A stretch of DNA of 64,000 bases from an uncultured Eubacteriales bacterium (GCA_902786465.1 CADACQ010000013.1:2723-66722), one strand, 5' to 3'. Positions 12,654 to 63,722 are shown, counted from the stretch's first letter. A program made the numbers and translations. Notes: generated by a model not told the origin, from the letters alone.

Positions 12654-12655
12654 AT

Positions 12656-13288: not shown

Positions 13289-13290
13289 TA

Positions 13291-13551: not shown

Positions 13552-13580
13552 GCGCTCCCTCGCTCCCTGACCTTTGCTCC

Positions 13581-13609
13581 ACTATATGCGGTCGGGAAAG
13601 AGGGTATGC
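13581..13609 (-). promoter_or_regulatory. SigE-type promoter of spoIIID
   Basis: Minus strand GCATACC-N14-CATATAGT; spoIIID is an established SigE target. Confidence 0.65.
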
Positions 13610-13613
13610 GCTT

Positions 13614-14414: not shown

Positions 14415-14436
14415 GAGAAAATCCCCTTGCTTCGTA

Positions 14437-14754: not shown

Positions 14755-14901
14755 ATTTTGCCTCCTGATATCTGTTTGTGGCATAGTATATCATTTTCTT
14801 GGCCTGCCGTCCATAAACCGGATATGAATTTTTCATGACTCCGCAAGAGTTCACCGCAGTTTTACTTGCCATCCGGGCCTTTTTTTGATACACTATCCTA
14901 C

Positions 14902-15717
14902 ATGAAAATCATATTCTCCATCTTCATATGCCTGGCCATGCTCTTCGGTTGCACCCCTGCGCCCGTGAAGGGCATGGATATCTACACCTTTTCCGTAGGC
15001 AAGGCTGACTGTTCCCTCATGTCCTTCGATGGGTACAACGTGCTCATTGACACAGGCGAGGAGGACGACGGGGATGAGATCCTTGAAGCGCTGCATCGAC
15101 TCGAGATCGAGAAGCTGGATCTGGTGATCCTGACCCACTTCGACAAGGACCATATCGGAGGCTTCCCCGAGATCAGCGACGGCATCCCCATCGACAAAGT
15201 CATCCTTCCGGATTACGTACGGGACAGCGACCTCTATTCAGCCATGACGGCGGCCCTCGAAACCCATGCCATCCCCGCGGAGCGGCTGGCGCTGGATACA
15301 TCCTTCTCCCTAGGCCGGGCCGTTTTCGATGTCTGGCCCTCCACCAAGACCTACAACCCGGAGAAAGGGAACGACAACCAGATGTCCCTGGTGACCCGCG
15401 TCGCCTTCGGCCAGGTCCGCCTCCTGTTCCTGGCGGACGCGGAGGGCGGCTGGCTCAAGGAGCTGTGCTATTCCACCTATGAACTGGGCTGCGATATCAT
15501 CAAGATCCCATGTCACGGTAAATGGCAGAAGAACCTCCCCGTTCTCCTTACACTGTCCCTGCCTCAATACGCCATCATCACCGATTCCGATAAGAACCCC
15601 GCCGCTGTGGATACCCTGGACACCCTCAGCGCCATGGAAATCACAGCCCTGCGCACCGCGGACGGCGACGTACATCTGTTCACCGACGGGCAAACCGTGA
15701 CGATCCCGAAGGACTGA
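14902..15717 (+). CDS. MBL-fold metallo-hydrolase lipoprotein (ComEC-like)
   Basis: Lipobox LFGC; VGKAD, IDTG, THFDKDHIGG, PCHG motifs. Confidence 0.8.
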   Translation: MKIIFSIFICLAMLFGCTPAPVKGMDIYTFSVGKADCSLMSFDGYNVLIDTGEEDDGDEILEALHRLEIEKLDLVILTHFDKDHIGGFPEISDGIPIDKVILPDYVRDSDLYSAMTAALETHAIPAERLALDTSFSLGRAVFDVWPSTKTYNPEKGNDNQMSLVTRVAFGQVRLLFLADAEGGWLKELCYSTYELGCDIIKIPCHGKWQKNLPVLLTLSLPQYAIITDSDKNPAAVDTLDTLSAMEITALRTADGDVHLFTDGQTVTIPKD

Positions 15718-15733
15718 TACGTATATAAAATGG

Positions 15734-15766
15734 AAAAGGTGACGGTTTTGCGGCCGTCACCTTTTT
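15734..15766. terminator. Bidirectional intrinsic terminator
   Basis: AAAAGGTGACGG...CCGTCACCTTTTT between convergent genes. Confidence 0.8.
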
Positions 15767-15769
15767 ATG

Positions 15770-16681
15770 CTATTTCTTTCCTCTTCGTACGATCATGATA
15801 GGAGGTTGTTCCTCCTCATCTATCGGCTCCTCTTCCGGCGGCGCTTCCTCGTAGGGCTCCTCCTCGGGTGCCGTCAGGATTTCCTCCTCTTCCTCGTCGT
15901 CTTCAAAATATTTGATGCGAGCCTTGTTCTTGCCCCGCCGCACGATCATGAGCGTCAGGACGACACAAATTAGGAGCGCTACCACGATGAACAGGCCGAA
16001 TACGATATAGGCCAAAACATCGCTGTCCCCATTGTTCGGCTCAGGTAAGGGGCTCGAGCCGGGAGAAAGCGTCACCTCCGTCACCGGGAACCTGGGCTCA
16101 TCCGTAGCCACGGCTGCGGGAGGCTGGCTGTTGACCGGCGCGCTGGTGAAGGGTGGTATGGTGGTGGGAACGCTTTGACCGGTGATCCGCCCCAGATTGA
16201 TGGTGCCGCCCGTATAGCTCTTCTGTGCGCCGGAACTGGCCGTCACAAAGGAATATGAAACCTTCTTCAGCACAAGCATGGTGCTCACGGCGGACAGGAT
16301 CTTGAAGCGAACGTGCATCAGCACGCCGCTGCCGGAGCAACCGTCGGAGGAGGCGGCCGTATAGGCCACCGAACCGGTCTTGGTCGTCACGTTGCAGATA
16401 TACTGGACGCCGAGGATGTTCATGCGATCCTGGGAAAGCTCCTGGATGCCCACAAACTCCAAAGCGGCGCTGTCATACTCCAGCACGAACTGCAGGGAAT
16501 CCATGGTCTGTCCCAGCTTGGGCGGCTCGATGGCGATGTTGATCGCCACAGTCACCGTGTCGCCCACGCTCCCCCGGACGTCCTCCGAGGTGATGGCCAC
16601 GGGGGTCCCGGTCGCCATGGATACGGATATAGGCAGCAAAAGCAATGCTGCTAAAAGAAGAGAAATGATCCTTCGTTTCAT
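15770..16681 (-). CDS. Membrane-anchored single cohesin-like domain protein
   Basis: Signal peptide; GDTVTVAINI...SLQFVLEYDSAALEFV...GVLMHVRFKIL cohesin-like pattern; P/T linker, TM helix, acidic tail. Confidence 0.7.
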   Translation of the reverse strand: MKRRIISLLLAALLLLPISVSMATGTPVAITSEDVRGSVGDTVTVAINIAIEPPKLGQTMDSLQFVLEYDSAALEFVGIQELSQDRMNILGVQYICNVTTKTGSVAYTAASSDGCSGSGVLMHVRFKILSAVSTMLVLKKVSYSFVTASSGAQKSYTGGTINLGRITGQSVPTTIPPFTSAPVNSQPPAAVATDEPRFPVTEVTLSPGSSPLPEPNNGDSDVLAYIVFGLFIVVALLICVVLTLMIVRRGKNKARIKYFEDDEEEEEILTAPEEEPYEEAPPEEEPIDEEEQPPIMIVRRGKK

Positions 16682-46584: not shown

Positions 46585-47373
46585 TCACTTTCGGAACCGT
46601 TTTTCGAGCAAGGCCACCGCCCCGTACATGAGGGCCGCCAGCACGCACAGGATCACCACCGAGGCCATGACGAGGTCCAGCTTGAACACCTGGCCCCCGT
46701 AGACGATCAGGTATCCGAGGCCCGACTTGCTCACCAGGTATTCCCCCACGATGACGCCCACCCAGCTCATGCCCACGGAGATCTTCAGGGCAGACATCAT
46801 ATGGGGCACCCCCGCGGGCAGGACCACCTTCTCGAAGGTCTGCCCCTTTTTTGCCCCCAAGGTGCGCATCAAAAACTGCTTCTCCGCCGCCGCGGCGGTG
46901 AAGCCGGAGAGGACCGTCACCGTGGTCACCACCAGGGAGATGAGCACCGCCATGACGATGATGGAGCCCATGCCCGCCCCGATCCAGACGATGAGCACCG
47001 GCCCAAGGGCGATCTTCGGCAGAGCGTTCAGCACCACCAGATAGGGGTCCATGACCTCGTTGACAAAGGGCAGCCACCATAGGAGCACGGCCAGCAGGAT
47101 GCCGAGACCCGTGCCCAGCAGGAAGCCCATAATGGTCTCGTAGAGGGTCACGCCCACATGGAGGAACAAACTCCCCTCCCCCCACAACCGCCCGATGGCC
47201 GCCAGGACCCGGCTGGGGCTCGAAAGGATAAACACGTCGAACCACCCAAGGCGCGCCCCCAGCTCCCAGAAGCCCAGCAGGAGGACCAGTACCAAAATGC
47301 GGCACAGGCCCACCGTCCAACCATGGATGCGGATGGCCCGCAGATACGCTGCATGCTCTTTTGTATAGTTCAT
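46585..47373 (-). CDS. NitT/TauT/SsuC-type ABC permease
   Basis: LSSPS, NALPKIALGP, W.GVIVGEYL.S..GLGY. Confidence 0.88.
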   Translation of the reverse strand: MNYTKEHAAYLRAIRIHGWTVGLCRILVLVLLLGFWELGARLGWFDVFILSSPSRVLAAIGRLWGEGSLFLHVGVTLYETIMGFLLGTGLGILLAVLLWWLPFVNEVMDPYLVVLNALPKIALGPVLIVWIGAGMGSIIVMAVLISLVVTTVTVLSGFTAAAAEKQFLMRTLGAKKGQTFEKVVLPAGVPHMMSALKISVGMSWVGVIVGEYLVSKSGLGYLIVYGGQVFKLDLVMASVVILCVLAALMYGAVALLEKRFRK

Positions 47374-48116
47374 CTTTCCAGCTCCTTCCAGATGGCGGCG
47401 AAGTGGTCCTGAAACGCGGGCGTTCCCCGGCGCTCGAGGGGCGTCATCCCCCGGGGGTATTCGAGGACCACCTCCCGCTTCAGGGTGGCGGGCCGGTCCG
47501 AGAACACCAGCACCCGGTCCGCCATGGACACGGCCTCCCCGATGTCGTGGGTCACCAGCAGGGCGGTCTTCCCCTCTTGCCGGATGATGGAGAACACCTC
47601 GTCGGCCAGGGTCAGCCTTGTCTGATAATCGAGGGCTGAAAAGGGTTCGTCCAATAGCAGCAGCTCCGGGTCTAAAGCCAGGGTCCTTATCAGGGCCGCC
47701 TTCTGCCGCATGCCTCCGGAGAGCTGGCTGGGATAGTGGGAAAGGAAGTCGCCCAGGCCGTACTTCTTCAGCAGGGCCACGGTCTTTGCCCGGCTTTCCT
47801 CAGTGAGCTTGTGCTGGACCTCCAGACCCAGCACAGCATTCTTTTCCAAGGTGCGCCACTCCAGCAAATTATCCCGCTGGAGCATGTACCCCATGGGGCA
47901 GGGCCCTAGTGGGAAGCGAACCCGACCCTTGGAGGGCGGGTTCAGCCCCATGATGAGGGACAGCATGGTGGTCTTGCCGCAGCCCGAGGGCCCCACTACC
48001 GCCACGAACTCCCCCTTGGCTACCTGAAAGCTAAGGTCCCGCACCGCCTCCGTCTCCCCCTGGGGCGTGTGATAGTACACGGATACGTTTTCCACCGACA
48101 ACAAGGCTCCTTCCAT
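47370..48116 (-). CDS. NitT/TauT-type ABC ATPase
   Basis: GPSGCGKT, YPSQLSGGMRQ, DEPFSALD, VTHD. Confidence 0.9.
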   Translation of the reverse strand: MEGALLSVENVSVYYHTPQGETEAVRDLSFQVAKGEFVAVVGPSGCGKTTMLSLIMGLNPPSKGRVRFPLGPCPMGYMLQRDNLLEWRTLEKNAVLGLEVQHKLTEESRAKTVALLKKYGLGDFLSHYPSQLSGGMRQKAALIRTLALDPELLLLDEPFSALDYQTRLTLADEVFSIIRQEGKTALLVTHDIGEAVSMADRVLVFSDRPATLKREVVLEYPRGMTPLERRGTPAFQDHFAAIWKELER

Positions 48117-48399: not shown

Positions 48400-49794
48400 T
48401 CAATCGCCCTCGCGATTGATGATGGACCCGTCCACGGCGTTGATGGTCAAAAAGGGCTTAAGGCCGTTGGTGGCCCAGTCCACGACGCCGTCATAGGGGC
48501 TCTCCACGTGGGCGTAGCCCAGGAAGGTCCAGGCGGGGACCAGGAGGCCGTTTTCGGAATTCTTCTCCGGGATGTTCACGAGACCCAGCTCCACTCTTTG
48601 GATGTGGTAGGTCATGTAGGTCTTGTCCCGGGTGCCGTCGTTCAGGTTATTATCATAGATCAGGATCATCTTGTCGAAGATCTCCTCGATTTTTGAGAAC
48701 GGCATCAGGTTCGTCTTCTCCGCCAGGGTCTCCATCATCGTGTATGGCGCGTCGTAGCGGACTCCGGCTACCCCGTCCTTGTCCACGGTCACCAGGAGCT
48801 TCTCATAGTCCCGCTGGTGGTTGTAGCCCTCGTCCCGGGTGCACTCTGCGTTGGTGATGGTCTCCCGGGCGCTGCCGTAGGCCCGGCCAAAGAAGAACCG
48901 CCAGCAGGGCTCGGTGCCGTTGCCATAGAGGTCATACTTCTCCGGCCAGGCGACGCTCAGGGCAAAATCCCCGATGGGGAGCTTGTTCACCAGCGCCACG
49001 GCCGCCGCCTCCGCCGTCCGGTAGTCCAGGTCGTTAGGGATCCTATTCTTATAGATCACGTTGGGGTTGTCATGGTCGTTGCGGATATACTCGATCCGGT
49101 CCACCGTGCCGTCCCAGGGATTGGAGAACACGTATATGCTGGACAGGGTCGCGTCGTCCACCGTGGCCTGCCACCAGCCCAGCATACCCAAGTCCTCCCG
49201 GGCTATCCGGGGCATCTTCTCCGGGGCCAGGCTCTGCTCCGTCAGGGTCTCGGCGAGGCGCTTCTCCACGTCCGCTTTGGTGGAATCGTCGTTGTCGAAG
49301 AGGGCGCTGCCGCCCTCGTCCCAGTGGTCGATGGCACACTGCATGAGCTGGATGGTGGGCACATACCAGGCCTTGGACCGGAGGTAATAGGTCTTTTCCT
49401 CGTTCACCTCCAGGACCTGGGGCGTGACGAACTCCGCCCCCGCAGGCAGCACCGCGTCAGCGAACTGAAGCAGCCACGCCTTGGTCAAGGCCCGCTCCGG
49501 TTCCACCCGGATGATGGGCAGCTCGTTCTCCGGCAGGATCACCTGGGCGTCCACGTCCACCATGAGCCGCCCGCCCGTGCCGGAGAGCTGTTTTTGAAAG
49601 GTCCTGGGCGCGCCCAACCGTTCATAGAAGTCCACCGGCTCCGCCGCCGGTTCCGGCTTCGATTCCTCCACTCTCTTGGCCGTTTCCAGCATCTTCTCCT
49701 GCTCGTTCTGAATGACGAAGGGCTGTTCCGGCGTGGGCTGGCAGGCACTGAGCAGGCACAGCAGGGACAAGCATAGGATCATCATGCGTTTCAT
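48400..49794 (-). CDS. CQPTP lipoprotein paralog 3 (DUF6034-like)
   Basis: Lipobox LSAC-QPTPE; C-terminal LMPF...ELGL...LVPAW.F.G...INAVDGS; RBS AGGAGG. Confidence 0.75.
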   Translation of the reverse strand: MKRMMILCLSLLCLLSACQPTPEQPFVIQNEQEKMLETAKRVEESKPEPAAEPVDFYERLGAPRTFQKQLSGTGGRLMVDVDAQVILPENELPIIRVEPERALTKAWLLQFADAVLPAGAEFVTPQVLEVNEEKTYYLRSKAWYVPTIQLMQCAIDHWDEGGSALFDNDDSTKADVEKRLAETLTEQSLAPEKMPRIAREDLGMLGWWQATVDDATLSSIYVFSNPWDGTVDRIEYIRNDHDNPNVIYKNRIPNDLDYRTAEAAAVALVNKLPIGDFALSVAWPEKYDLYGNGTEPCWRFFFGRAYGSARETITNAECTRDEGYNHQRDYEKLLVTVDKDGVAGVRYDAPYTMMETLAEKTNLMPFSKIEEIFDKMILIYDNNLNDGTRDKTYMTYHIQRVELGLVNIPEKNSENGLLVPAWTFLGYAHVESPYDGVVDWATNGLKPFLTINAVDGSIINREGD

Positions 49795-49881
49795 AGATAC
49801 ACCTCCTGTTCGATGTCTGCCTCATTGTACCGGTCAAATGCGGACGAATTGCAACACGCCTATGAACAGCGCCCCCAAAGA

Positions 49882-49909
49882 TGTTACGTTCTTGTAATGA
49901 TCTTGTAAT
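49882..49909. promoter_or_regulatory. Triple direct repeat with 11-bp period (OmpR/WalR-like box)
   Basis: TGTTAC-N5-TGTAAT-N5-TGTAAT upstream of paralog 3. Confidence 0.55.
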
Positions 49910-49925
49910 TTTGGTGGACAGCCCG

Positions 49926-51344
49926 TCAATACCCGTATTCCCCGTGGACGATGGACCCGTCCACGGCGTTGAGGATCAGGGCCTCCTGCATGACCTGGGG
50001 GTTGTCTACTAGGTCCGCCTGGCCGTCGTTCCAGGTGAAAAATACCACCCAGCAGGGCATCTCGTAGTAGTCGTCACTGTCCTTCACCCGTACGGTACAG
50101 GTGGTGAGCAGCAGCCGGTAGATGGTGCAGGGGATGGGCTGGTCCAGCTTGGCCGTGCCCATGCCCGTCACCAGGGCGTTCTTGATCCGCATCTGGACCT
50201 GCTCGAAGGGCAGCAGCTCCACGTTTTCACTCTCCTGCGATACCACCTCCTTGGGGTTTAGGCAGCGAAGGGCCTGGAGGCCGTTTTCATCTATAAATAT
50301 CTCCAGCATCTCGTCGGGGATGGGACGGTTGTAAACGAGGGTGTCCTGGTCCCCGTAGAGCAGGGCCCGGGAGTCCATGAAGCTCACCGCGCTCAGGGGG
50401 TACCCGCCGTAGCTCCGTCGAACCTGGAACCCCCACCCGGCGGACTGGGGCCTCTGGCTGTCGTTGCGACCGATGACGCACAGGTTGGCTGGGGCTGCCC
50501 TTGACACGGTGAAGCCGGAAAGGCCCAGACGGTCCAGTTCTCGATGCAAGGCCTCTTCCGCCGCTTCCCGGCTCATCTTCACCGTCAAAAATGGTTTCAC
50601 CTCCCCCAGCTCCTTCTCCCGCTCATAGGTGTACTGGTAGTAGATGTATCCGGAGCCGCTGCAGCCCTTGAAGACGTCTATGCTGACAAAGCTGCTGTAT
50701 GCCATGGCCTCCACGGTGGCCTTGGAGCCGTCAGCGAGCTCATAGACCCGGGCGCCCTCGTTCAGCTTCAGACCGGAATAATCAGAAACGGGGGTGGTTG
50801 TGAGCTCGTCCGGGGCCTCGGCGATGAGCCGCTGATACTCCTTGGAGATGCGGTCGATCTCCTCTGCGCTCATCATAGCCTCATCCCGGTCCATCCCGTC
50901 CTGGGGCTTGCCCGCGGTCACCCAGGCCTGCTGCTCCGCCAGATCGTCCAGCCATTCCTGGTAGGACTGCTGCCAATCCACCTTGGTGTCCACGGGGATG
51001 GTCACGGAGGTGGGCGGCGGCAGCAGCTGTTCCACCAGCGCTACCACCTCCTCCTGAGTCACGGCGTGCTGCCGGGTACGGTACACGGGATAGAGCCCAT
51101 CTTCCTTCACGACCACCTCCGCCCGGACGGTCAAGGTCAGCCGATCGTTTACCGTCTCCGGCCCCTCGTCCCACCGATCCGGGAAGGTCTGCCGCCCCTC
51201 CCCCGCCGTTCCGTCCTGGACCGCCGCCAGCTTCTCCTCGACCACATCGTCCCCTTTGTTCACCACGAACTCTACCTCCGGTGTTGGCTGGCAGGCAGTG
51301 CATAACAGCAACGTTGATAGTATAAACATACATATCTTTTTCAT
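49926..51344 (-). CDS. CQPTP lipoprotein paralog 2 (DUF6034-like)
   Basis: CTAC-QPTPEVEFVVNKGD; C-terminal LLPFEQV...MPCW...LNAVDGS. Confidence 0.75.
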   Translation of the reverse strand: MKKICMFILSTLLLCTACQPTPEVEFVVNKGDDVVEEKLAAVQDGTAGEGRQTFPDRWDEGPETVNDRLTLTVRAEVVVKEDGLYPVYRTRQHAVTQEEVVALVEQLLPPPTSVTIPVDTKVDWQQSYQEWLDDLAEQQAWVTAGKPQDGMDRDEAMMSAEEIDRISKEYQRLIAEAPDELTTTPVSDYSGLKLNEGARVYELADGSKATVEAMAYSSFVSIDVFKGCSGSGYIYYQYTYEREKELGEVKPFLTVKMSREAAEEALHRELDRLGLSGFTVSRAAPANLCVIGRNDSQRPQSAGWGFQVRRSYGGYPLSAVSFMDSRALLYGDQDTLVYNRPIPDEMLEIFIDENGLQALRCLNPKEVVSQESENVELLPFEQVQMRIKNALVTGMGTAKLDQPIPCTIYRLLLTTCTVRVKDSDDYYEMPCWVVFFTWNDGQADLVDNPQVMQEALILNAVDGSIVHGEYGY

Positions 51345-51360
51345 TATATTCATTCTCCTC

Positions 51361-52710
51361 TCACTCCATATTTGCTGTGCCGATCAGCGTCCCGTCGGCG
51401 GCGTTGAAGATCAGCAGGGCGCCCTCCTTGGTTTTGTTGGAATAAGCGATTATATCTCCGGTGTCCAGGTCCGTGGAGAAGCCGCTGTCCGTGACCGTGC
51501 CCACCACCGCCCAGGCGGGAACCAGGAGCCAGCTCTGCTCATTTGGGGTCCGGATGCGCTTGTAGCCGAAGCGCAGCTCCTGTATATTCACTTGTCGACT
51601 GCGGATATTCTCGTTGGTCCAGCTCATCAGGAACCGAAGATCGTTCTGTACCAGAGCCTGCACCTCAGGGAAGGGCAATAGGGCGGTGTCCTCTGTCATC
51701 GGCCGCAACAGCTCGCTACGACCCACCCAGGAAAGGACGCAAAGCTTCTTTACCGCCTTGTCCATTGTCACCTCGAAACATTCCTCCGGCGCGAAGGTGG
51801 CCCAGTCGAACTCGTTCTCCTCCTCGCAGCCGGAGAGATACTCTATCCCGTCTACCAGCGGTCCGAAGATCAGGGTGATGGTGGCGGAGCTTTCGTATGC
51901 CTTCTGCAACCCATACCTGTTCCCATAGCCCAGGGCATCCAGCAGGGATCGGGCCCAAACTGTGGCTTCCTCTTTGCTGGACACGGTCATCTCTCCTATC
52001 CCTCCGCTCATGGCCCTCAGATGCACCTGCTCCCGCTGGCGGCCTGTACCGTCGAACACTAGCGTCATATCCGCCACCCGTCGGCCTTCCCGGTCGAAAA
52101 GGCCTAAATCCCCCTGGAAACCCTCCTCCTGCAGGGTGGACAGATCCTCGATGGGCTGGGGCGTCTCGTCGCTGGCTTCCTGATATTGGCGCATCAGCTC
52201 CTGGTTGGCTGCCTCCAGGTCCCGTAGATAGATATCCAGCTCCTTCTGGCTGGCGTCCGGCTGCAGCTCCCTGGCGTGGTCCATGCGCCATCTGTTCTGC
52301 TCCATCTCCGCCTGGATCCGATCCTTTGTCCACACGGCTGAGCCGAATTCGTCCACCGGGATTCTGGACAGGTACCCGCCTGGGACTAGCGCCTGTACCA
52401 GCTTTTCCACCGCGTCCAGGTCCACGCCGCCGGGCACGGTCTCCCATATGGGCACCCGATCCACCGCCGGGAAGGTGACGGGCCCGTTGGCCGTGACCGT
52501 CACAGCCCCGTTGCCCACGTCCAGCAGTTCTTCCCACCGTTCGGGCAGGCCGGTTTTATATGCCGCCGCGTCGAAGCCCTCTCCGTTCTCCCGAATCACC
52601 GCCTGCAGGGTATCGTCCCCCTTGTTGGGGATCACCTCCGCCTTAGGCGTAGGCTGGCAGGCAGTGAATAAAACCATAGTAAAAAGTATAATAATGCAGA
52701 TACGCATCAT
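51361..52710 (-). CDS. CQPTP lipoprotein paralog 1 (DUF6034-like)
   Basis: FTAC-QPTPKAEVIPNKGD; C-terminal LLPFPEV...LVPAW...FNAADGT; RBS AAGGAG. Confidence 0.75.
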   Translation of the reverse strand: MMRICIIILFTMVLFTACQPTPKAEVIPNKGDDTLQAVIRENGEGFDAAAYKTGLPERWEELLDVGNGAVTVTANGPVTFPAVDRVPIWETVPGGVDLDAVEKLVQALVPGGYLSRIPVDEFGSAVWTKDRIQAEMEQNRWRMDHARELQPDASQKELDIYLRDLEAANQELMRQYQEASDETPQPIEDLSTLQEEGFQGDLGLFDREGRRVADMTLVFDGTGRQREQVHLRAMSGGIGEMTVSSKEEATVWARSLLDALGYGNRYGLQKAYESSATITLIFGPLVDGIEYLSGCEEENEFDWATFAPEECFEVTMDKAVKKLCVLSWVGRSELLRPMTEDTALLPFPEVQALVQNDLRFLMSWTNENIRSRQVNIQELRFGYKRIRTPNEQSWLLVPAWAVVGTVTDSGFSTDLDTGDIIAYSNKTKEGALLIFNAADGTLIGTANME

Positions 52711-52819
52711 GGCATGCACTCCTTTCATCTTCAACATCCTACCAGGTATATTCGGACAAACCGCAACAAGGTTATGAACGAGACGTAATAGAGTTGTAAA
52801 ATCCTGGATAAAAGCAAAC

Positions 52820-52858
52820 CAAGAGGAGCGCGAACCATAATAGCTCGCGCTCCTCTTG
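52820..52858 (-). terminator. Terminator after the family-5 solute-binding protein gene
   Basis: CAAGAGGAGCGCGA...TCGCGCTCCTCTTG; T-rich run follows on the minus strand. Confidence 0.7.
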
Positions 52859-52896: not shown

Positions 52897-54975
52897 TTAT
52901 GAATTGGGTTTCAGATAGCTCTCCAGAATCGCCTGTGCCCAAGTCCCATGAGCTGTGATATCGTAGTTCTGCAACTCGGGTATATAGAAGTCATAGTAAG
53001 TATTCGAATACACAGGGATGGCCGGCAGAACTTTGTTGTACTGCTTCTGGAATGCGATCCACTTAGACAGATACGCATACACGTCACCCGGCTCCGTTTT
53101 GCGCATATCCACAGCCAAACGATAGAGCGTCTCGTCATTGGTATACATGGTATTCCACTGCTCATGATTCACGCTGGTATCGGTGCTGAGCAGGATCGCA
53201 GGATCATACACGGTGTTGAAATTGGTCGCCAGGAAGATCATTTCCGCCGTCCGTTCCGTCTGCCGATAATAGGCGGAAAGCAGATCCTGTCCAGATGTGG
53301 GCACCAAAGTCAGCTTGATGCCGCAAGCATTCAGGTTTTCCACCGCACTCGCCTGGATGACGTCACCGATCCGGCTTCCCTCCAGATACATCAGCTTCAG
53401 ATCCAGCGCCACCAATTCGCCATCCACCTTCTTGCAGCGCACTTCGTCCGTGCCTGCGCGATAGGATGTCCCATCTTGATTCAACGTCCAGCCTGCATTG
53501 TTCAGCAAGGCATTGGCTTTGTCCACATTCACCGCATACTCGGTAAGATCGTTCATGGACAAAGCGCGCCATCTGGTAAGTATCCGCATGTATTCCTGTT
53601 TGTCATGCGCATAGCGATTTGCAAATGCAGAGGAACCATCATCCGCTGCCGCAGGACCGTCTTCGCTGTCATATCCTTTCAGTATAGGATATCCGATCTT
53701 GCCTTCTACCATCAGATACTCCCACTGCTGCAATCCATAGAAGCCATCCATACGGACGCCGTAGGAGCCACAATACTCCGAAGTGATACGATCCCTGTCG
53801 ATGCACCATGCGATCGCCTGGCGAACCGCCTGCTCTCGCACCGCAGGCAGCTCATAGCTGAAGGTCAGGAAGGATAGGCCCACCCGTGGATAGGAGCTGT
53901 TTTTAATCTGTTCCGCTTTGCGCACGGAATCGATCACAGACCCATCGACTACCTTGTTCACAAGATGCAGCTCACCGTTCAACAGTTTGTCCTGAATATC
54001 CTCGTTCTTGACATAAGTATATCCGATCTTTTGGATGCTTGGTTTAACCAGGGTATGCTCGTTTCCGTTACCATCAACGATCGTCACCAGGTTTTCCCGA
54101 TCGAGATCAGCAGCAGAACGATCGCCCAGCCAAACGCCCTTGAAATAGGGGTTGAGCGCGAAATGGCAGGTAATGCCGTCATAACTGGTCAACACATAGG
54201 CGCCGCTGGTCACGGAAGGATGAGAATTATAACCTGTATCCGGATCCAGGATCGTCTTTTTCAGCAAATCAGCTGTAAAGCCGCTTTCTCCGATGCCGTC
54301 CTCGTTGCCAATATAGGCGCCCTCACCGTCATCAAAGACCTTGCAGCCGGGTGCGATCACCGAAATGGGATAGGGCAGGCAAAGGAGCAACCCTTCCTCA
54401 TAGTAATGAGGAAGATAGGCGCTGTCCAGCGTAATTGCTAATTCTTGATCGCTGATGACGCGCACCCCCCTCAGGGCCTTGCTCTCCCCCTTCAGGTATT
54501 CAGCATTTCCAAGAATATGCTCAGCCAGATAGATCTTGCCGCCGATCTCTTCGATTTCAGAGCTCATCTGCAGCAGCAGAGAAAAGGCGTAGTCCCACGC
54601 CGTGATCTTCGATCCGTCGGAGTAGCAAAGATCGTCCCACAGCTTGAACTGATAGGTCTTGTTCCCCTGAGCATCCATCTCCGTCGTGTAGGAGTAAACT
54701 ACGGAGGGATCCACCGCATACTCCCCTTGAGACTGATCCCAGTTTATCAGATTGTAGCCGTGTATCAATGCTCTCACATCAAGATCAGCGCTATTGGTAC
54801 CGAACATATCTGCAAAGAAGTCACCACGGGTAGGATTTGGATTGCCCACCATCAGTTCCTCGGGCTGAGATGCATCTGCCCTGGCGCTGGCTGGCATTCC
54901 GAAGAATGCCGCCAGCAGGAACATCAACGTGAACATCAAGGTCATCGTTCGCTTTATGCTGATGTATTTCATCAT
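52897..54975 (-). CDS. Orphan family-5 (OppA/DppA-like) solute-binding protein
   Basis: YQFKLWDDLCYSDGSKITAWDYAFS, SGAYVL, VRQAIAWCIDR, A..LL..AGW, LPAIPVY; cleavable signal without lipobox Cys; no permease genes adjacent. Confidence 0.8.
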   Translation of the reverse strand: MMKYISIKRTMTLMFTLMFLLAAFFGMPASARADASQPEELMVGNPNPTRGDFFADMFGTNSADLDVRALIHGYNLINWDQSQGEYAVDPSVVYSYTTEMDAQGNKTYQFKLWDDLCYSDGSKITAWDYAFSLLLQMSSEIEEIGGKIYLAEHILGNAEYLKGESKALRGVRVISDQELAITLDSAYLPHYYEEGLLLCLPYPISVIAPGCKVFDDGEGAYIGNEDGIGESGFTADLLKKTILDPDTGYNSHPSVTSGAYVLTSYDGITCHFALNPYFKGVWLGDRSAADLDRENLVTIVDGNGNEHTLVKPSIQKIGYTYVKNEDIQDKLLNGELHLVNKVVDGSVIDSVRKAEQIKNSSYPRVGLSFLTFSYELPAVREQAVRQAIAWCIDRDRITSEYCGSYGVRMDGFYGLQQWEYLMVEGKIGYPILKGYDSEDGPAAADDGSSAFANRYAHDKQEYMRILTRWRALSMNDLTEYAVNVDKANALLNNAGWTLNQDGTSYRAGTDEVRCKKVDGELVALDLKLMYLEGSRIGDVIQASAVENLNACGIKLTLVPTSGQDLLSAYYRQTERTAEMIFLATNFNTVYDPAILLSTDTSVNHEQWNTMYTNDETLYRLAVDMRKTEPGDVYAYLSKWIAFQKQYNKVLPAIPVYSNTYYDFYIPELQNYDITAHGTWAQAILESYLKPNS

Positions 54976-55002
54976 TTCGTACCTCCTCTTTTCCTACCCT
55001 GC

Positions 55003-58000
55003 TCACTCGAAGCATTCGCCGAACTGGCTGCCCAAATAGCCTGCTTGAGGTGCGTTCTTCTCAAGTTCAGCAAGGATAGTCAGCTTGCCGATTACAGTAG
55101 TGATCTTATAGTTCTTCGCCTTTGTGTTCTCGTTCAGCTTGTACGTAAAGCCATTGTTGCTTGTACCGACTTCTGTACGATAACCCGTCACGTTATAAGT
55201 CGCACCTTCACCATCTACGAAGCCATCACCGCTTACCGTAACGGTAGCTATGCGCAAAGGCGTACCGTCGTACCACTTGCTTCCTGTTGCACTAGTCAGT
55301 ATGATTTCACGCGGTGTCACCTTCAAATAGAAGCCATCCATTTGAGCTGTCTCGTATCCTACCTTCGTCGCACGGACGGAGAAGGTTGTATTGCCGACAT
55401 CCGTCAATTCAGGTGCAGTCGTGCTCCAGCTTGAACCGCCATCAGTACTATACTCGATGATCGCGTCATCGATATTCGACGTTGCCGTGACCGTATGAGC
55501 TTTGCCATCGTATTTCACCGATACACTTTCGCTGTCAACGGTCATGCCTTTCAGTAGTCCGACAGGATCTGTGACCGTGTCAGAATCCTCAACGGTCGGG
55601 TTCTTAGGATCAGGGCTCGTACCCTTCGCCGTCGCCTCGTTAACGACCTTGAGCGCTTCAACATCGGTATCGTTCACAACATGACTGTCGGTGTATACCT
55701 TGTCCTCACCAGGCGCCATAGATGCGATCGTCCACACGTTGCCTGTGAGTATATCCGTCACGGTAATGTTCGTGATCGTCAGATTGCCGTCGTTGGTCAC
55801 CGTGATCTTGTAGGCAATCATCTCACCCAGTACGTACTTGCCATCCTCGGCTGCGGCCGTCGATGTGGTCTCCTTCGTGATAGTGATATGGCCTTTTTGT
55901 TCAGCAGTCACTGTTGCACTTGCGCTTGCTTCTGCTGGGTTTTCGCCACGTACCGCCGTCGCGTTCGCCTTTACCACGTTCACAATCGAACCTGCGTCAA
56001 CGTCTGCCTGCGTCACTTCGTACGTGTACGTGAAGGTCGCTTCCTCATTGGGAGCCAAATCGAAGGTCTTGTCGCTCAGATCGGCGTGATCGTCTGCCAG
56101 ATTGCCGTCCTTCACGCTCACGTTGCCGCTGTTCGTTACTACAACCGTGTACGTGACCTTGTCGCCTACCTTCACGCCGCTCTCAGGAGACGCCGTCTTC
56201 TCGACCGTCAGCGCCGTGACCTCTGCATCGTCAGATGCCGTCACTTCATTATTCTTCGGATCCTTACCGGTTGCAGTCACTTCGTTCTCGATCTTGCCCG
56301 CATCCACGTCGGCCTGCGTCACCGTGTACTCGTAGGTGATCGTCTTCGTCCCGGCAGGCGCCAGATCGAACGCGGCCTCACTCAAGGTGACCAGCGTATC
56401 GCTCAGCGCAATGCCGCTCACCGTCACGTTGCCGCTGTTCGTTACCTCACCGTCACGTTGCCGCTGTTCGTTACGACCACCGTGTACGTGACCGTCTCGC
56501 CCACGCCCACACCGGAGGTAGGATCGGCGCTCTTCGTCACCGTCAGCGCCGCTGCGATCTCTTCGGTGTGGACCGTATCGCTGGCGGTATAGTTCTTGCC
56601 TTCCAGCTTTGCGGTGACCGTGTTCGTGAAGCTGCCCGCAGCCATATCGGCAGGGGTGATGACGTAGGTCGCCGTGGTGGTACGAGTCTCACCTGCAGGA
56701 ACATCTGTGAAGGTGGTATCCGCCAGCGTCACGCCCGTGATCTCAGTGAGGGTGATCGTCTTGGCTTCAGCATAGATATTCTTGACGGTGATGGTGAAGG
56801 TTACCGTCTCGCCTTCGGCGTAAGTCGCATCGTCCGCCTTGCCGTCGTTCTTGGTCACGATCAGGCTCGGATCGATATTCTCGTCCGTGACCGTCAGCGT
56901 GCCCGGCGTGTACGTGATGTTGTAGTTCGCCGTCACGTCGACGCCGTCACCGTTCTTGATGACCGCTACGCTCGGCGTGTTCGCACTGCTGCCCACCTCG
57001 GTCTGGCTGCCCGTTACCGTCACGTTATCAACTGTGTCAGTGCCCTGCAGACCAACAGGCGCTGTATCCTGCCATCCGTCATCCGTCAGCGCCGTGCCGT
57101 CATAGGGCTTGCTGGTGGAATCCGCCGTAATCGTCAGCGGCGCCTTCGTGATGGTCAACTTGCCGGCGATCGGAGTAATGGTCGTGTAGAACTCGGCAGT
57201 GATATCTTCCCCGTCGCGAGTGATGGTTATATCGGCATGCTCGAAGCTGCCGTTTTCGTAGGTGGCAACATTGGTGCCGGTAGCGGACACATAATCAGTG
57301 ATGATCAAAACGTCGCCCGCTGCAAGGCCTTCGATCGTATATTCATCCGTATCGATCGTATCGCCGGTACCAATGATGGGGTCGGTGAAGCCATAACCAT
57401 TTTGAGCGCTGCCATTGTAGACCTTAGAAGCGTCCTTGGCAGTGATCTTGATCGTCGCACCGGTGACCGTCAGGGTACCGAGATTATCGGTGATCGTGTA
57501 ATTGCTTGCCTTGGCAGTGTCCCACTCGATCGTATAGGTATTCTCGGTGCTGCCAGGGTCGGTGATCGTTCCGTTCGCCGTAGCCGTCGCCGTTTCGCCA
57601 TCAACCAGCCCTTCGATAGTCGCCTCGGAATTCGTCAGCGGCGTACCGTCGTATGCCTTGGTGTCGCTGGCCGTGGTGACCGTAACGGGCTTGGGCTTGA
57701 TCTCCAAGCGACCGGAACGGACAAACAGGCTGACGCTGTAGTTATCATTCTGCGGCAAGTCTGCCAGAGTGAAATCTATATAATAGGTATAATCGCCCGC
57801 ATCCGCATATGCGATCGCCACATAGCCCAGACCGACGGCGCTGTCATCATGGGTGACCTGTGAATAATTGGTTTCGCCCGAAACGTGAGCGCTGTTGACA
57901 GCAGCCCAAATAGTATTCAGATACTGCGCCTTGTAGCCGTCATGGCTGATCGCGACATAGTCCTCGATGCCCTTGCCGGTGTTGGTGAAACCGGTCTTCC

Positions 58001-61000
58001 TAACCGTACCGTCATAGACGTTGCCGGTCCAGCGGTCGGGCTCGATACGGACGTTGACGTTGATCTTGGTGACTTCGAGCGTGCCGCTGATATAGCGGAC
58101 CGTATAGTAGTTTTCGGTTGCGCCGGTAATGACGGCATCGTGCGGCGTGACCGTCGCGACGCCCGCATTCAAACGGCCCTTGGAATCGTTCGAATCCGCT
58201 TCAGTATAGGTATACTGGATCGAATTCAGCGAGTGACCGTCCAGCAGGCCCTCTACCGTGACCTGATCCGCCAGACTCTCAGGCAGAGTCAGCGCGGTGC
58301 CGTCATACTGCTTGCTTCGGGGCTCCACCGTGATGGTGAGCTTCTTCTGATAGAACAGTGTGAAGACCAGGCCGTCGCCTTCCGCGACTGCATCCGTGAT
58401 CTTATAATCCGTACCTGCAGCGGTTCCGCCGTAAGCAATGCCTTCGACCGCCTTGTTGAGCTCCCATCCGGCGATCGGCGTGCGCGCCAAAGTAAAGGTC
58501 TTGCCGACCTTCAGGTGCTGCACGTCCGCCGTGATACCGGGAATGGGATTGCCGTCCATGTCAACAAAGTTGACCGTAACGAGCGCGTTCTTGTAGCTCG
58601 AATAAATGAACGTATAGACGTTGTTCTCTTCGATCGCCGTCAGAACGAAGGTCTTTTCGGACGCATCCGGGAAGAACTCGATGCCGTCCAGTTCGGGATG
58701 CGCCGCGTAGAGCGTCGTATAATCGACCGCCTTTGCAAGCTCGATGACGGATGCCGTATCGCCGGGAACGTCATTGACCGTCTTTTCCTCCGCAACCGGG
58801 ATATCACCTGCGTACTCTTCCGGGTCGATGATGTATCTGACCTTATAGCTGGTCTTATCGCCCTTTACTCTGTAAACAAAGGTGATCTCGTTGCCTTCAA
58901 CCGCAAGCTCGATCGTCTGCGTATCGGTCTCCGGACGGTAGCCCGCGACTGCGATCGCGGATTCCGTGATGCTCTGACCGACCGTGAAGTTCGGGTTGGA
59001 GACTTCCTTGTCCGGCGCAACCGGATTACCGTCTTCATCCACATAGTGGACGACGTAGCTCAGCGTCGCGCGGGTCCAGTGCGCATAGACCGTGGTATTC
59101 GCCGTGATCTGCATGCCGAAGTCAAACAGATCATTGCCGTCCGCCGCGGTGTACCAACCGTCGAAGACGTAGCCCGCCTTGGTGGGTGTGCCGGGGTTCG
59201 TCGCCTTCTTGTACTTTTCGACCGTCTGATCCGCAAACAGATTCGTCGAAGTGGCTTCACCGTCTACAAAGCTGACCGTGAAGCTCGGCGCCGTCCACTT
59301 GGCATAGAGCACAAGGTTGCTCGCCGGCATCGTGGCAAAGGTATACTTTGCGGTCAGACCGGAATCGGAATACCAGCCGTCGAACGTATAGTCGTCGTCC
59401 ACGCCGCACTGCGCCGCGGTGGGCGTCCAGTCATACGTCGCCGTATTGATGTTGGCTCCGAATCTGACCGTTTTGCTGTTGTTCAGATCCCTGCTCAGGT
59501 AATAGTAATCGATAACGTACTGATACCGATCATAGTACAGATTCATGTAGGGATTCTTATGATTGCCCGTATACTCCCAGGTACCGTCCGGGGTGCTCAG
59601 GCTTTCGTTATAGATATAGCCGTTAATCGGGTCGTGTGAATATGTAGTAGCCCACTGCCGACCCGACCAGCCGTCAGCTACAAAGCTTTGGCTGTAAATT
59701 TCCGACAGAGTGTAGCCGTCATCATCCGCATTTTGCAGATAAATGTTGATCCTATATGTTGTGTCACCATCCGTCCATACACCAGTATAAGTGATGGTCG
59801 TGCCGCTTTCGGGAAGCAAGCCGGTGGTCAACCGATACTGCTTCAGGTCCTGATATACAGTAGTATCGGTCGGTTTCCGCCAACCGGCAAGTGTAACGTC
59901 ATAATAGTCGTAATAGTATGTTCCAGTCCCTGCGGAAGGCCACAGGTTGGTGATATTCTGTCCGATTTTCGCGGTAAACGAATAGTTCAGCAATCCCGTA
60001 CCGGAAACGTTTTTGCCGGTCAGCGTCGCATTAACATTATAACGACCAAAAGTACCTGCATTAAACTGGAAAGTGTACTCGACCAGTTTATAGTATACAT
60101 TCAATACGGAAGAGCCATCCGCCGCGATTTCCACGCTGGAGGTTGCGTTCTTTGCGGTATCCACTTCCCAACCGGCTCTGGTGATGGTCGGCGCGGAAGA
60201 CGCCTGCACCGTAGTGCCAACCGTACCGGTTGCATTTCTGGAATTATCATACACGTAGGAAGATTCTGTTCCGGTATCGTTATACTTCTCGAACATATAG
60301 ACGATCGTATAATCGACCGTATCGCCCGTCCACTTCGCATAGAGCGTAGTGTTGCCGTTGACGGTGACCGTGCTGCCCGCCGCTGTCGTCAAGGCTTCGT
60401 CCGTATACCATCCTGCGAAGGTGTAGCCGTCGCGGGTCGGGACGGTTTCGGTGACCGCCTGCTCGGTGCCATAAGGCACGGTGACGCCGCCGACGTAGGA
60501 ACCGCCGTTGGATTCGTAGGTCAACTGGAAGCTCTTGCGGGTATAGTAGACTTTCAGCTCCTGCTTCGGCTGACCGTTAATACCGGAGGTCTCGATGGTT
60601 GCGCCTTCCGCGCGCTCAAGCGTTGCGTATGTAAAGGTCTTGACCGTCGGAGTGACATAGCTGTTCAGAACGCCCTCTACGTAGCTCTCTCTGTCGATCT
60701 CGGTATAACCGTCGCCGGTGAGATCTTTCAGCATGTACACAAAGTCATAGACCGCCGTGTACGGAACGTACTTGACCCGGACCAGGCAATGCTTGTCGTT
60801 GTCGAAATCGGTTTCTTTGACTTCAACCGTCGGCGTTTCCGGATAGTAGATCGGTGCGCCGGTAACTTCGTTGGGATCCGTCTTCGTCGTGGAGGGCGCC
60901 GTGATCGTATACGGCAGCTCGCTGTGTTCTACCTGCAGAAGTTCGGTGCTGAAGATGACTTCACCGTTATTGCCGATATAGTAGTATTCCACCGTGATGT

Positions 61001-63722
61001 TATAAACATCGACGGTACGGAACTGCGCAACGGCGACGATATTGCCATTGACGACTGTAGCGGCAGTGACGTCTGCACCGGTCTCCTGATCAACCCACTT
61101 CTCGAAGATCTTGCCTTCGATGAAGGGATCCTGCGGCATGGTGCCGATGGGGTCGCCTTCGGTGCGGAAGTACTGCGACAGGGTCTCGATGACTGTTACG
61201 CCATCGTCGTCCAGAATGACGAAGCGGACGTAGAACTCGTCCCTAAACTCCGCGATGATCTCCATATCGGAGGTAACCGGGGTGCCTGCGCTGATCGGTT
61301 GATCGTTGTATAACCAACGCACAAATTCCTTGCCTTCGACTACGGGCTCCGCGGGAAGGACAAGTTCATCGTTCTTATTATACTTCTCGGTCTTGTAGCT
61401 GTTGCCTTCCACCTTGAAGACAACGGTGAAGACGTTCTGGTCATACGCGGGCCAAACGTTCGTGTCGGCGCTCACCGCCACCTGATTGGTGAAATCACCG
61501 CCGGAGTATACCCACTTGCCCAGGCTGCCGCTCTGGGCGGGGACTGCCGGCATGTCGTTCACGCAGTAGTTGGAGTCCGCGGTGACCGTCCTGGTAGCAA
61601 TGGGTTCGCCAGTGCAGGTTTCGTCCGCATAGAAGGTCACCGTATAGGTGATCTTGTCATAATCAGGACCGATGGTCAGATCGTCATTGACCGGGATGGT
61701 GGTGGTAGTGATCCTCTCGCTGGCTGTCCACGTTTGCTGGCCTTCGCCAGTGACCGTGCCATAGGCCCAGTACGCGGTGTACCCGTCGCGGGGGATCAGA
61801 TCGGTGGAAGGCAGGGTGATCTCCGTGCCGTCATCGACCGTCCTGGTCTCCAGCAGGTTAGCGTCTCTGTCGTAGAATTTGACCGTCCAGACCTTGACGT
61901 AGGACGCGGTGACGGTCATGTCGCCGGTGGGAACGGTGTCGGCGTCGACCGCTTCATTATTGGAAACCCACTTGTCGAAGCGATAGCCTTCCTTTGCGGG
62001 CGCAGCGGGGAACTCGCCGATGGCGGAACCCTTGGCGACAGAGCGGGTCTCCAGGGTTTCGTCGTCAGCAACGAAGGTGACCGTCCAGGATTCGTTATGC
62101 GCGGCATACAGGACGCCGTAATACCAATCATCGCCGCCCTGGCCATCGGGGCGGAAGTAGATCGTGTAGCTTCCGGCATCGTTTATCGTCAGGTTGGAGC
62201 CTTCACCGGGATACCAGACGTCGTTCGAGCCTTTTACCTTGAGCTGTGTGTTCGCCGGAAGACTCACCGTGATCATATACTCGGTGTCTACGTTAGCGCT
62301 GAGCTTATAATCACCGCTGATCGTCCAATTGTTCATGGTGCCAACCAGATAGTAACTAACGGCCGGCGCCTTAATGGGCCCGCCCATACCAGGCTTGACG
62401 CCATTAAGCTCGGAATCGGTCTCACCGTTGTCCATCGCCTCGCCGGGTTCGGCAGGGTCGACAGGCTCTACGGATTCAGCGGGCTCAGGGAAGGAAAGCG
62501 TCAGCGTGCCTTCCACGCCCTCGTCAGTGGTGAAGGTGATGACGACGGTATCGAAACGGACACCTGCCTGGGGCCGGAGCACGAACTCGCCGGGATCACT
62601 CGCCTCGACGATGACCAGGTCGGGCAGGTCCACGGACATCCGGGCTACGCCGCTGGTCTCATAACCGGCATCGCGAAGGAAGCCGGCCAAACGGATATAG
62701 TCTGCTTCCGACGTGAACGTATAAGACAAGGTTATGGGCTCCGCCGGTGTTTCAGGATCGGCATCCTCTTCGGTCTGCTCGGCAGCGGAAACCAGAACCA
62801 GGGCTACACCAATCGTGCCTTCAGCATTTACTGAAAGGTTGACCTGGCTTCCCTGGGACAAGTCGACCTTGATGGGAGCGTCGGAGAGACTGTTGTCAAC
62901 CAGAGAATAGAACACCAAGGACTCCCCTTCGCTAAGCGCGGGAAGCGTACGAAGAACGACTGAGAGAGTGATCTCAGTGTGGTTATCGAGTCCGTTGACG
63001 GCCACGGTTTCCAGGACGGTGAGGCTACCGGCATTGACTGCGCCGATTGCCGATATGGAGGGAACATCATGAGTGTCATTGTACGTCCCACTGGCGACGG
63101 CACTGAGATAGGCGCCGGTGTACTCCTGGCTGAAAGCAGCTTCGTGCTTGCCCAGCTCGGATTCCTCCTCGTCTTCCTCATCAGTATGCTCGCTGTCCTC
63201 GGCGCCCATGGTGGCTTCCTCACCATCTTCCGCGCCTTCGGTCTGCTCCGCGCCATCGATGTTCTCGGAGTCCTCGGCGCCCTCGGTGGCTTCCTCGCCA
63301 TCTTCCACGCCTTCGGTCTGCTCCGCGCCCTCAGTGGTCTCGGAGTCCTCAGCGCCGTCGGTGGCTTCAGCAGACACCTCATCGGGACCGGGTACGCGAA
63401 TCACCACCGTGGCGGGTTCGGCCACAGCATCAGATTCGGCAGACGCGTCCGGAACAGCGTCGGATTCGGCAGACGCGTCCGGAACAGCGTCGGATTCGCC
63501 ATATGCGTCCGGATCAGCGTCGGATACGGCAGACGCGTTCGGATCAGCGTCGGATACTTCCTCCGCATTGTCCGTAGCAGCGGGCTGTACCACTTGCTGT
63601 GTCGTTTCTTCCACACCATCGGTCTCCGTTCTGGTCTCGGTGCCATCGTCTGCGAACGCAGAGACAGGGCACAGCGAAATTACCATCAGGATGCTCAGCA
63701 GCAGGGAAATCGCTCTTCTCAT
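55003..63722 (-). CDS. Giant repetitive surface protein (~2896 aa if the 29-bp duplication is removed); frameshifted in this sequence into 56442-63722 and 55003-56427
   Basis: Signal peptide, acidic repeats, a carbohydrate-binding-like module, Listeria-Bacteroides (InlB-B) repeats (P.RDGYTFAGWY...TTLYAKW), MucBP-like, MBG-like (LTITADSTSKPYDGT) and DUF11/DUF7507-like (VTYTVVVTNSGNV) repeats; 8720-29=8691 nt, an exact multiple of 3. Confidence 0.85.
56417..56474. repeat. Perfect 29-bp tandem duplication causing the frameshift
   Basis: CTCACCGTCACGTTGCCGCTGTTCGTTAC x2. Confidence 0.92.
63190..63557 (-). repeat. Acidic intragenic tandem repeats (30-bp unit at 63424-63557; ~66-bp unit at ~63190-63365)
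   Basis: SDA(D/V)P(D/N)ASA(E/V) about 4.5 times, and GAEDSE...GAEQTEG.EDGEEAT about 2.5 times. Confidence 0.8.

Follow-up and report, generated by a model that had tools for sequence, protein, structure and literature searches.

How is a giant secreted protein held at the cell surface when its C-terminus carries no recognisable anchor, and what does a solute-binding protein without an Opp-type operon do directly behind it? The question is raised by a locus in a 64-kb stretch of DNA from an uncultured Eubacteriales bacterium (GCA_902786465.1, CADACQ010000013.1:2723-66722), hereafter the window, which belongs to a genome of 1.99 Mb in 58 contigs that is 71% complete (G000). An earlier reading of this DNA, made from the sequence alone (the sequence-only reading), had proposed that the last residues of the giant protein form a sorting tag, either captured by the adjoining family-5 (OppA/AppA-fold) solute-binding-like protein (SBP) or modified at the Cys third from the end. 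As far as sequence, genomic context and modelling reach, the evidence set out below supports the sorting tag, while the anchoring that such a tag would serve is inferred by us. We consider it somewhat probable that the giant protein and the SBP form a dedicated tag-receptor pair, which would dock or retain the surface protein by its C-terminal end.

Layout of the locus

All genes of the system lie on the minus strand. The SBP gene (52897..54975, 692 aa, assigned by Pfam and by fold), encoding the proposed tag receptor, is separated from the stop codon of the upstream open reading frame (ORF), a TGA at 55003-55005, by an intergenic spacer of 27 nt with an AGGAGG ribosome-binding site (54976..55002). 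The tag, APQAGYLGSQFGECFE, occupies together with its stop codon positions 55003..55053 and is delimited by the tail that is kept in orthologues; its last ten residues, LGSQFGECFE (55006-55035), are the part predicted by a complex model to enter the SBP cleft. An intrinsic-terminator-like hairpin with an 18-bp stem and a T-rich tail (52820..52858) stands directly 3' of the SBP gene, and the giant gene and the SBP gene are probably co-transcribed.

The giant protein starts at 63722 with the signal peptide MRRAISLLLSILMVISLCPVSAFA and ends in ...LAELEKNAPQAGYLGSQFGECFE, with the last codon at 55006 followed by TGA. Inspection of the sequence and Pfam searches bore out the earlier description of this protein as secreted, ending in GECFE and devoid, at its C-terminus, of an LPXTG motif, a hydrophobic segment or transmembrane helix, a basic tail and an SLH domain; the Pfam model Gram_pos_anchor had no match in the protein, and no other Pfam anchor or curated sorting-signal model matched it. 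The same holds for the description of the SBP gene as lying 27 nt downstream on the same strand, encoding a family-5 protein without lipobox and being followed by a terminator.

Recurrence and exact position of the tag

The motif G[DE]C[FYW][DE] stands at the end of only one of the 10,863 ORFs (at least 80 aa) of the bacterium's own genome, and it is unique within this genome only. In a genome of the same genus (G016) an ORF ending in ...PLAFPGYLGNQTGECFE precedes an SBP orthologue 69% identical to that of the window, and in a genome of another genus of the same family (G079) an ORF ending in ...PLAAPAAALGNQVGECFE is followed by an orthologous SBP, in this case with a lipobox. In both relatives the tail is kept while the preceding linker diverges. 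Furthermore, 80 metagenome loci, fetched with an SBP alignment built from 39 of the best 120 SBP clusters (A1), yielded 48 distinct tails of 22 aa that fall into three classes: class A of the window clade, ...LG[SN]Q.GECFE; class B of rumen loci, ...[FI][DE][DE]Y.T[PA]LG....INHVGDCFD; and class C (MNVGDCFE), ...DDYGVPLGLGNITMNVGDCFE, whose human-gut loci are nearly identical to each other. Rare variants have either the Cys replaced (INHVGDTFD, LVNQFGDYFE) or the Asp replaced (GYCFD, GHCFD).

The alignment of the tails (A2) was used as a hidden Markov model in an exhaustive search of 1.84 billion representative proteins, which returned 292 clusters at E<=0.001 and 137 at E<=1e-10. Among the best 150 of these 292 clusters the match ends at the last residue of the protein in every case (150/150), the Cys at position -3 is present in 147, the other three having Thr or Ser, and 33 carriers are at least 1000 aa long, the longest reaching 6034 aa. 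The sequence-only reading had suggested that G(D/E)CF(E/D) ends are present on large surface proteins of related gut or rumen Clostridia, and such ends do occur on large secreted proteins of these bacteria. A word-based search with a single tail retrieved 94 clusters of 362-1154 aa, all of which (94/94) end in INHVGDCF[DE], and in none of them (0/94) was an LPXTG-like motif, LP.T[GAN], found in the last 60 aa.

The passengers that carry the tag are mutually unrelated: they comprise Cna_B domains (up to 22 repeats), FctA/Spy0128, SpaA, DUF7601, DUF5979, Flg_new (InlB-type), MBG and DUF7507, a repertoire typical of sortase substrates, and the tag usually stands behind a linker rich in Pro and Lys. 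The tag is a portable C-terminal module of wide spread and exact end position. About 13 residues before the end, most tags contain [DE][DE]Y.T[PA]LG followed by V, L or I; the window clade lacks PLG and has ..PLA.P.. or NAPQAG instead. PLG with a following hydrophobic residue is a classic metalloprotease cleavage motif, and in these tails it could be a release site.

The tag is not covered by existing models in what was scanned: three 45-aa tails gave no NCBIfam match even at E<=10, three longer tagged proteins had no NCBIfam match covering the tag, and no Pfam model covers the tags of the scanned carriers. Unlike curated C-terminal sorting tags, the motif is followed by no hydrophobic stretch. 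Literature searches, made with the motif strings GDCFD, GECFE, GDCFE and VGDCFD and with the concept, returned no description of the tag-SBP pair in the titles and abstract openings, and we know of no described system in which an SBP fold is the cognate partner of the C-terminal tag of a surface protein.

Two nucleotide scans complemented these searches. The strict back-translated pattern LG[SN]Q.G[DE]C[FY][DE], applied to one genome per species, matched 12 stretches, two of which are true ORF ends (those of G016 and G079) and ten are chance matches; it says little on distribution because it is too narrow for INHVGDCFD and MNVGDCFE. The pattern G[DE]C[FY][DE] followed by a stop codon gave 17 matches in 240 genomes of the family versus 10 in the reversed control, with three true tags.

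Linkage of the tag to one SBP subfamily

The sequence-only reading had called for a check of the adjacency of the motif to this SBP subfamily. A frame-by-frame scan upstream of the SBP genes in the 80 metagenome loci found a tagged ORF on the same strand ending within 600 nt in 76 of them, and the remaining four loci are cut off, with at most 242 nt of upstream sequence. The gene linkage between the tag and the SBP subfamily is strict. The tight arrangement seen in the window recurs in G016 and G079, and the pairing holds down to 42% SBP identity and across unrelated passengers. Tag class and SBP kinship run in parallel, GECFE occurring with SBPs at least 63% identical to that of the window, INHVGDCFD with SBPs 46-56% identical and MNVGDCFE with SBPs 42-45% identical, a correspondence confounded by common descent. 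Among 399 scored genomes sampled from the class, an SBP search matched only the bacterium's own genome at E<=1e-60; either species representatives seldom carry the subfamily, or its lineages are absent from the sample. In a few loci more than one tagged gene lies near a single SBP gene, namely two in tandem upstream in both L099 (1617-7846) and L076, and a second one located downstream in L060.

One-to-one gene linkage and probable co-transcription, together with the ordinary signal peptides of both proteins, would also suit a transient helper, that is, an SBP assisting export or folding outside the membrane and shielding the long repeat protein from proteases. We judge this very unlikely: the tagged proteins range from 317 to more than 6000 aa, so that size-related folding help would not be their common need, and a chaperone would not require such a sharply conserved terminal motif.

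Family, fold and signal peptide of the SBP

The SBP matches the Pfam family SBP_bac_5 (PF00496) over residues 103-597 with 113.9 bits against a cut-off of 32.4. Its N-terminus, MMKYISIKRTMTLMFTLMFLLAAFFGMPASARAD, is a signal of the signal-peptidase-I type without any Cys, and the protein therefore has no lipobox. The AlphaFold2 (AF2) model has a mean predicted local distance difference test score (pLDDT) of 86.3, and Foldseek placed it closest to Bacillus subtilis AppA with a bound nonapeptide (1xoc_A, E 6.8e-29, TMt 0.81), followed by lactococcal OppA, likewise with a nonapeptide (3drg_A, TMt 0.77), at about 14% identity to the solved relatives. All NCBIfam equivalogs scored far under their cut-offs, OppA included, the best being Opp4A (86 bits versus 650; NikA, 46.7 versus 393). 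No cohesin-dockerin, SLH, WxL or CWB2 Pfam domain was found in the SBP, in the giant protein or in the scanned relatives of either.

The SBP subfamily is a large one in metagenomes of rumen and gut. Its best 120 listed clusters are 48-99% identical, full-length and 675-892 aa long. A lipobox is present in four to six of these 120, and additionally in the human-gut clade (LTGC), in G079 and in L053, while the signals of most rumen-clade SBPs look cleavable and no anchor is seen in these proteins. In 74 of the 120 clusters the C-terminus is prolonged by an acidic extension of at least 18 aa; it mostly ends in two hydrophobic residues plus [DE]D, often with F (ALFFDD, LAVFDD, TFFDDF), which faintly resembles the CFD end of the adhesin tag, and it is absent from the four clear lipoprotein SBPs. 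Docking of this acidic tail in the cleft of its own protein found no support in cis, the tail having a pLDDT of 34 in the AF2 single-chain model of one SBP that carries it, with residues 719-739 below 50.

Transporter context

No Opp-type permease or ATP-binding cassette (ABC) ATPase was found among 111 representative ORFs located within 6 kb of the SBP in related loci; the two BPD_transp_1 matches in the flanks come from a cluster of sugar-uptake genes encoded on the opposite strand, and the flanking neighbours otherwise vary between lineages. The claim that no permease or ATPase genes lie near the SBP of the window holds in rough terms: no Opp-type genes adjoin it, and an SsuBC/TauBC-like ABC pair is located 4.8 kb downstream (see below). 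Only SBP homologues of at most 35% identity adjoin opp-like genes, as judged by sequence rather than by Pfam. In the bacterium's own genome two complete opp-like operons, assigned in the same manner, are encoded on contig C12 (~61000-79200, minus strand). Their family-5 SBPs, with 768 and 994 aa, are longer than usual, carry the lipoboxes AVAC and VVAC, respectively, and have Pro/Glu/Thr/Lys-rich linkers after the lipid-anchor Cys. The SBP of the window departs from this local norm in both respects, since it has neither a lipobox nor accompanying opp genes. By its fold it is an ordinary transporter component; by its context it is not, even if it might still serve a distant permease.

Service to a distant permease is part of a rival explanation, in which the tail is cut off, bound as a free signal or recycling peptide by the orphan SBP and delivered for import to a shared Opp permease, as with PrgZ and TraC. 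PrgZ is among the solved relatives by sequence, the own genome has the two opp-like permease sets mentioned above, the SBPs of the gut clade are lipoproteins, and Y.TPLG stands ahead of the last ~13 residues in most tails (two of three classes); in addition, mature signalling peptides of Gram-positive bacteria often derive from the C-terminal end of exported precursors. We nonetheless regard this explanation as unlikely, given that most SBPs of the subfamily lack the lipid anchor which the transport SBPs of the genome possess and that the window-clade tails have no PLG. Moreover, no regulator of the RRNPP type was found among the 111 flanking ORFs, where only a lone LysR- or LacI-type regulator occurs in single loci, and a signal borne by proteins of up to 6034 aa would be costly.

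Predicted complex of the tail and the SBP

Residues 34-692 of the mature SBP (A1) were folded together with the C-terminal 45 residues of the giant protein (A2), a check proposed by the sequence-only reading. Three runs gave ipSAE values of 0.67, 0.72 and 0.75 (median 0.72) versus 0.00 for the best of three controls, two of which had the tail swapped for unrelated peptides and one the SBP swapped for an unrelated protein. The mark applied is reached by 58 of 80 solved complexes and by 2 of 110 mismatched pairs, counts that are rough because the present complex was folded with our own alignments. Contacts agree between the runs to at least 42%, and the partner has a pLDDT of 39-43.

On the tail side, only residues 36-45 of 45 make contacts, and these are exactly LGSQFGECFE. 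On the SBP side, the contacts line the inter-lobe cleft (residues 46-48, 56, 60-62, 65, 68, 75, 198, 200, 341, 343, 368, 401, 531, 534, 536, 562, 565-566, 569, 581-587, 589-591 and 594-595). Across 72 paired SBPs, conservation is higher at the contact residues than elsewhere in the protein (0.79 versus 0.64; Mann-Whitney p=0.003, the sequences not being independent of each other). In particular, R68, N75, K341, Y401, L565, Y569, L582, A583, T584, N585, F586 and D591 show little or no variation across the three tag classes, and positions 47, 531, 534, 562, 587 and 590 vary by class. As a prediction rather than a measurement, the model supports the view that the SBP binds the last ~10 residues of the tail through these contacts.

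The conserved Cys of the tail invites a further explanation, namely covalent chemistry at position -3 while the tail is held by the SBP. The Cys might be linked to the SBP by a disulfide or a metal, or the Asp/Glu-Cys bond might undergo an N-to-S acyl shift, by which the last three residues would be released and the protein joined to an acceptor. The Cys is present in nearly all of the best 150 profile matches, the exceptions being Thr or Ser, which are also possible nucleophiles; two Cys residues of the SBP, Cys211 and Cys391, hardly vary; a metal could be bound by the terminal carboxylate together with the acidic residues at -4 and -1; and the family-5 SBPs NikA and CntA bind metal chelates. 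Such chemistry seems quite improbable to us all the same: the tail of L098 has Tyr at -3, no family-5 SBP is, to our knowledge, an enzyme, and a Cys of the SBP as partner of the tail Cys in the cleft had to be rejected, as none is both invariant in the three classes and a predicted contact.

The control scores also bear on the simplest explanation, an ordinary nutrient-peptide SBP that adjoins an adhesin gene by coincidence. The family-5 fold and the similarity to OppA and AppA are what such a protein would show. Coincidence is nevertheless hardly credible in view of the pairing in 76 of 80 loci, with SBPs down to 42% identity and unrelated passengers, of the lack of cognate permease genes nearby, and of the score of 0.00 obtained with unrelated control peptides.

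Proposed docking of the surface protein

The dedicated tag-receptor pair that we favour would work as follows. The giant protein would be exported by means of its signal peptide and, as a stalk-like protein on the outside, would present a free C-terminal tag, LGSQFGECFE-COOH (INHVGDCFD or MNVGDCFE in the sister clades), at the place where sortase substrates carry LPXTG. The neighbouring protein of OppA/AppA fold, which would have lost its link to ABC permease genes, may enclose this tethered peptide between its two lobes, as OppA holds a free nonapeptide, and the remainder of the adhesin chain would run out of the cleft. In this way the stalk-like surface protein would be docked or retained at its C-terminal end. 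Docking or retention appears the likeliest function because the tag sits exactly at the LPXTG position in proteins of the same architecture, and we infer the purpose from this correspondence. Where the SBP is a lipoprotein, as in the human-gut clade, G079 and L053, it would provide a membrane anchor.

A more far-reaching version of this proposal, which we advance tentatively and with more doubt than belief, is a new principle of surface display in Gram-positive anaerobes, in which a transporter-derived OppA-fold clamp would be the receptor of a tag of ~10 residues (consensus N-H-V-G-D-C-F-D-COOH) replacing LPXTG on Cna_B, pilin-type and giant repeat adhesins. The nearly invariant Cys might secure the complex through a metal bridge or a thiol-based covalent bond. 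In that case the pair would also be a natural, compact peptide-tag/receptor module.

Several points weigh against docking by a dedicated pair, or limit its scope. Firstly, the SBP of the window has neither lipobox nor other anchor, unlike the transport family-5 SBPs of the same genome, so that anchoring would need a second attachment; most SBPs of the subfamily likewise have a cleavable-looking signal and no anchor. Secondly, the complex model may pass partly by likeness, because OppA-peptide complexes are abundant among solved structures, and the fold of the partner is uncertain (pLDDT <50), in addition to the rough calibration noted above. Thirdly, only one tag each was found in the own genome, in G016 and in G079, and one substrate per genome in the window clade speaks for a private pair rather than for a general sorting pathway. 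Fourthly, the relatives that have the pair keep sortases (one each in G016 and in the relative G012, and four in G079), and the pair therefore does not replace sortase; PF04203 was not found in the own genome, itself only 71% complete. Finally, Cys at -3 is not universal, Thr, Ser or Tyr occurring in a few tails, and the assembly shows the giant gene broken in two, a break that is probably artefactual.

Comparison with known systems

The closest counterparts by structure are B. subtilis AppA and Lactococcus lactis OppA, which share fold and family with the SBP and enclose an extended peptide of about nine residues between their lobes. L. lactis OppA reportedly accepts peptides far longer than its cavity, with the excess protruding, which makes a tethered ligand structurally conceivable. 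The SBP differs from both by the absence of cognate permease and ATPase genes, the mostly missing lipid anchor, the low identity (~14%) and its presumed ligand, which is the C-terminus of one neighbouring giant protein and not free nutrient peptides. PrgZ and TraC of enterococcal plasmids are likewise OppA-like, encoded away from permease genes and dedicated to a single peptide. Both are lipoproteins and deliver a free heptapeptide to the Opp permease of the host, whereas the peptide considered here forms the C-terminus of a large structural protein whose gene lies in cis, and the regulators in the flanks are only the lone LysR- or LacI-type genes of single loci.

By passengers, the tagged proteins resemble LPXTG adhesins and pilins, with which they share Cna_B, FctA/Spy0128, SpaA, GramPos-pilin-like, MBG and InlB repeats as well as a signal at the extreme C-terminus behind a Pro/Lys-rich linker; they differ in having no LPXTG, hydrophobic segment or basic tail, and in a partner with an SBP fold in place of a cysteine transpeptidase. 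Cohesin-dockerin pairs, WxL, SLH and CWB2 are alike by logic only, in that a small C-terminal element fixes varied passengers to a receptor, whereas here the element is a linear peptide of ~10-20 residues and the receptor would be a transporter-derived clamp. A conserved C-terminal tag with a genome-linked dedicated partner is also found in PEP-CTERM/exosortase, GlyGly-CTERM/rhombosortase and the C-terminal domain (CTD)/PorU pair of the type IX secretion system. Tags of this type consist of a transmembrane helix with a basic cluster, or of a folded CTD, and their partner is a protease or a transpeptidase.

The way in which anaerobic Clostridia of gut and rumen mount very large adhesins is poorly understood, and many of these proteins are annotated without an anchor. 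If the proposed pair is real, a tag with a transporter-derived receptor would account for a whole class of Cna_B, pilin-like and InlB-repeat proteins that look anchor-less; it would also be a new use of one of the best-studied protein folds, and a specific short tag with a natural binder predicted at high confidence might serve as a tool in protein engineering. The tag pattern combined with the SBP profile would re-label several hundred clusters now annotated as 'ABC transporter substrate-binding protein' or 'hypothetical'.

Reading frame of the giant gene

The length of about 2,900 aa given to the giant protein by the sequence-only reading holds with a qualification. In this assembly the gene consists of two ORFs: an N-terminal piece of 2426 aa starting with ATG (56442..63722, minus strand), which contains an acidic low-complexity region, InlB-type B repeats (Flg_new x5), MBG and DUF7507, and a C-terminal piece of 474 aa from a GTG (55003..56427, minus strand; open from 56688), which contains three DUF7507 domains, DUF11 and MBG-like repeats followed by the tag. 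The frame is shifted by two abutting exact copies of 29 nt (56417..56474, minus strand). In run X1, which holds 90% of the words of the stretch, independent contigs stop and start precisely where the two copies adjoin (56445|56446). At this border a collapsed repeat, 354 nt long and of depth 578, meets a unique 7018-nt contig of depth 23, and none of the listed contig pieces of this run spans it. In L051 a homologue is continuous across the region; its match lies in frame 1 ahead of the break and in frame 3 behind it. An exact duplication of this kind would result from abutting two contigs without merging their k-mer overlap, and the duplication is probably such an assembly artefact, an unmerged contig overlap. 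The contig break at the border of the copies and the read-through in L051 are the reasons why the protein is treated here as one polypeptide of ~2.9 kaa.

Neighbouring genes

The neighbourhood of the tag-SBP cassette holds some further genes in single lineages. A sortase-like gene lies directly upstream of the cassette in L054 (724-1668), and a signal-peptidase-like S26 gene together with an LPXTG pilin (GramPos_pilinBB and SpaA) directly downstream of it in L075 (3004-5164). In L080-L082 (~10100-16500), which represent one rumen lineage, the cassette is followed downstream by a gene for a secreted protein of ~1200 aa with (EAPT)n PT repeats and an extremely acidic middle. After it comes a secreted gene that clusters with the tagged carriers (c3), whose end lies beyond these loci and whose N-terminal part in L080 has no Cna_B-type Pfam match.

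In the window, three paralogous DUF6034 lipoproteins of 458, 475 and 464 aa are encoded in tandem on the minus strand (48400-52737), the first of them, with the lipobox LFTAC, by the gene next past the terminator. Directly after this trio, on the same strand, follow an ABC ATPase (47370-48116) and a single BPD_transp_1 permease (46585-47373), so that the pair is separated from the SBP gene by the terminator and the three DUF6034 genes. The DUF6034 trio and the ABC pair were considered as further parts of the tag-SBP system and rejected, DUF6034 following the SBP only in the window and in G012. Among the 111 flanking-ORF representatives of related loci DUF6034 had no match, and neither DUF6034 nor the ABC pair was recognised beside the SBP orthologues of G016 and G079, whose ORF lists were read without a Pfam scan. 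The ABC pair is SsuBC/TauBC-like and not Opp-like, with its best NCBIfam matches far under the cut-off. It is accompanied by no recognisable SBP, and DUF6034 might be the binding component of this transporter.

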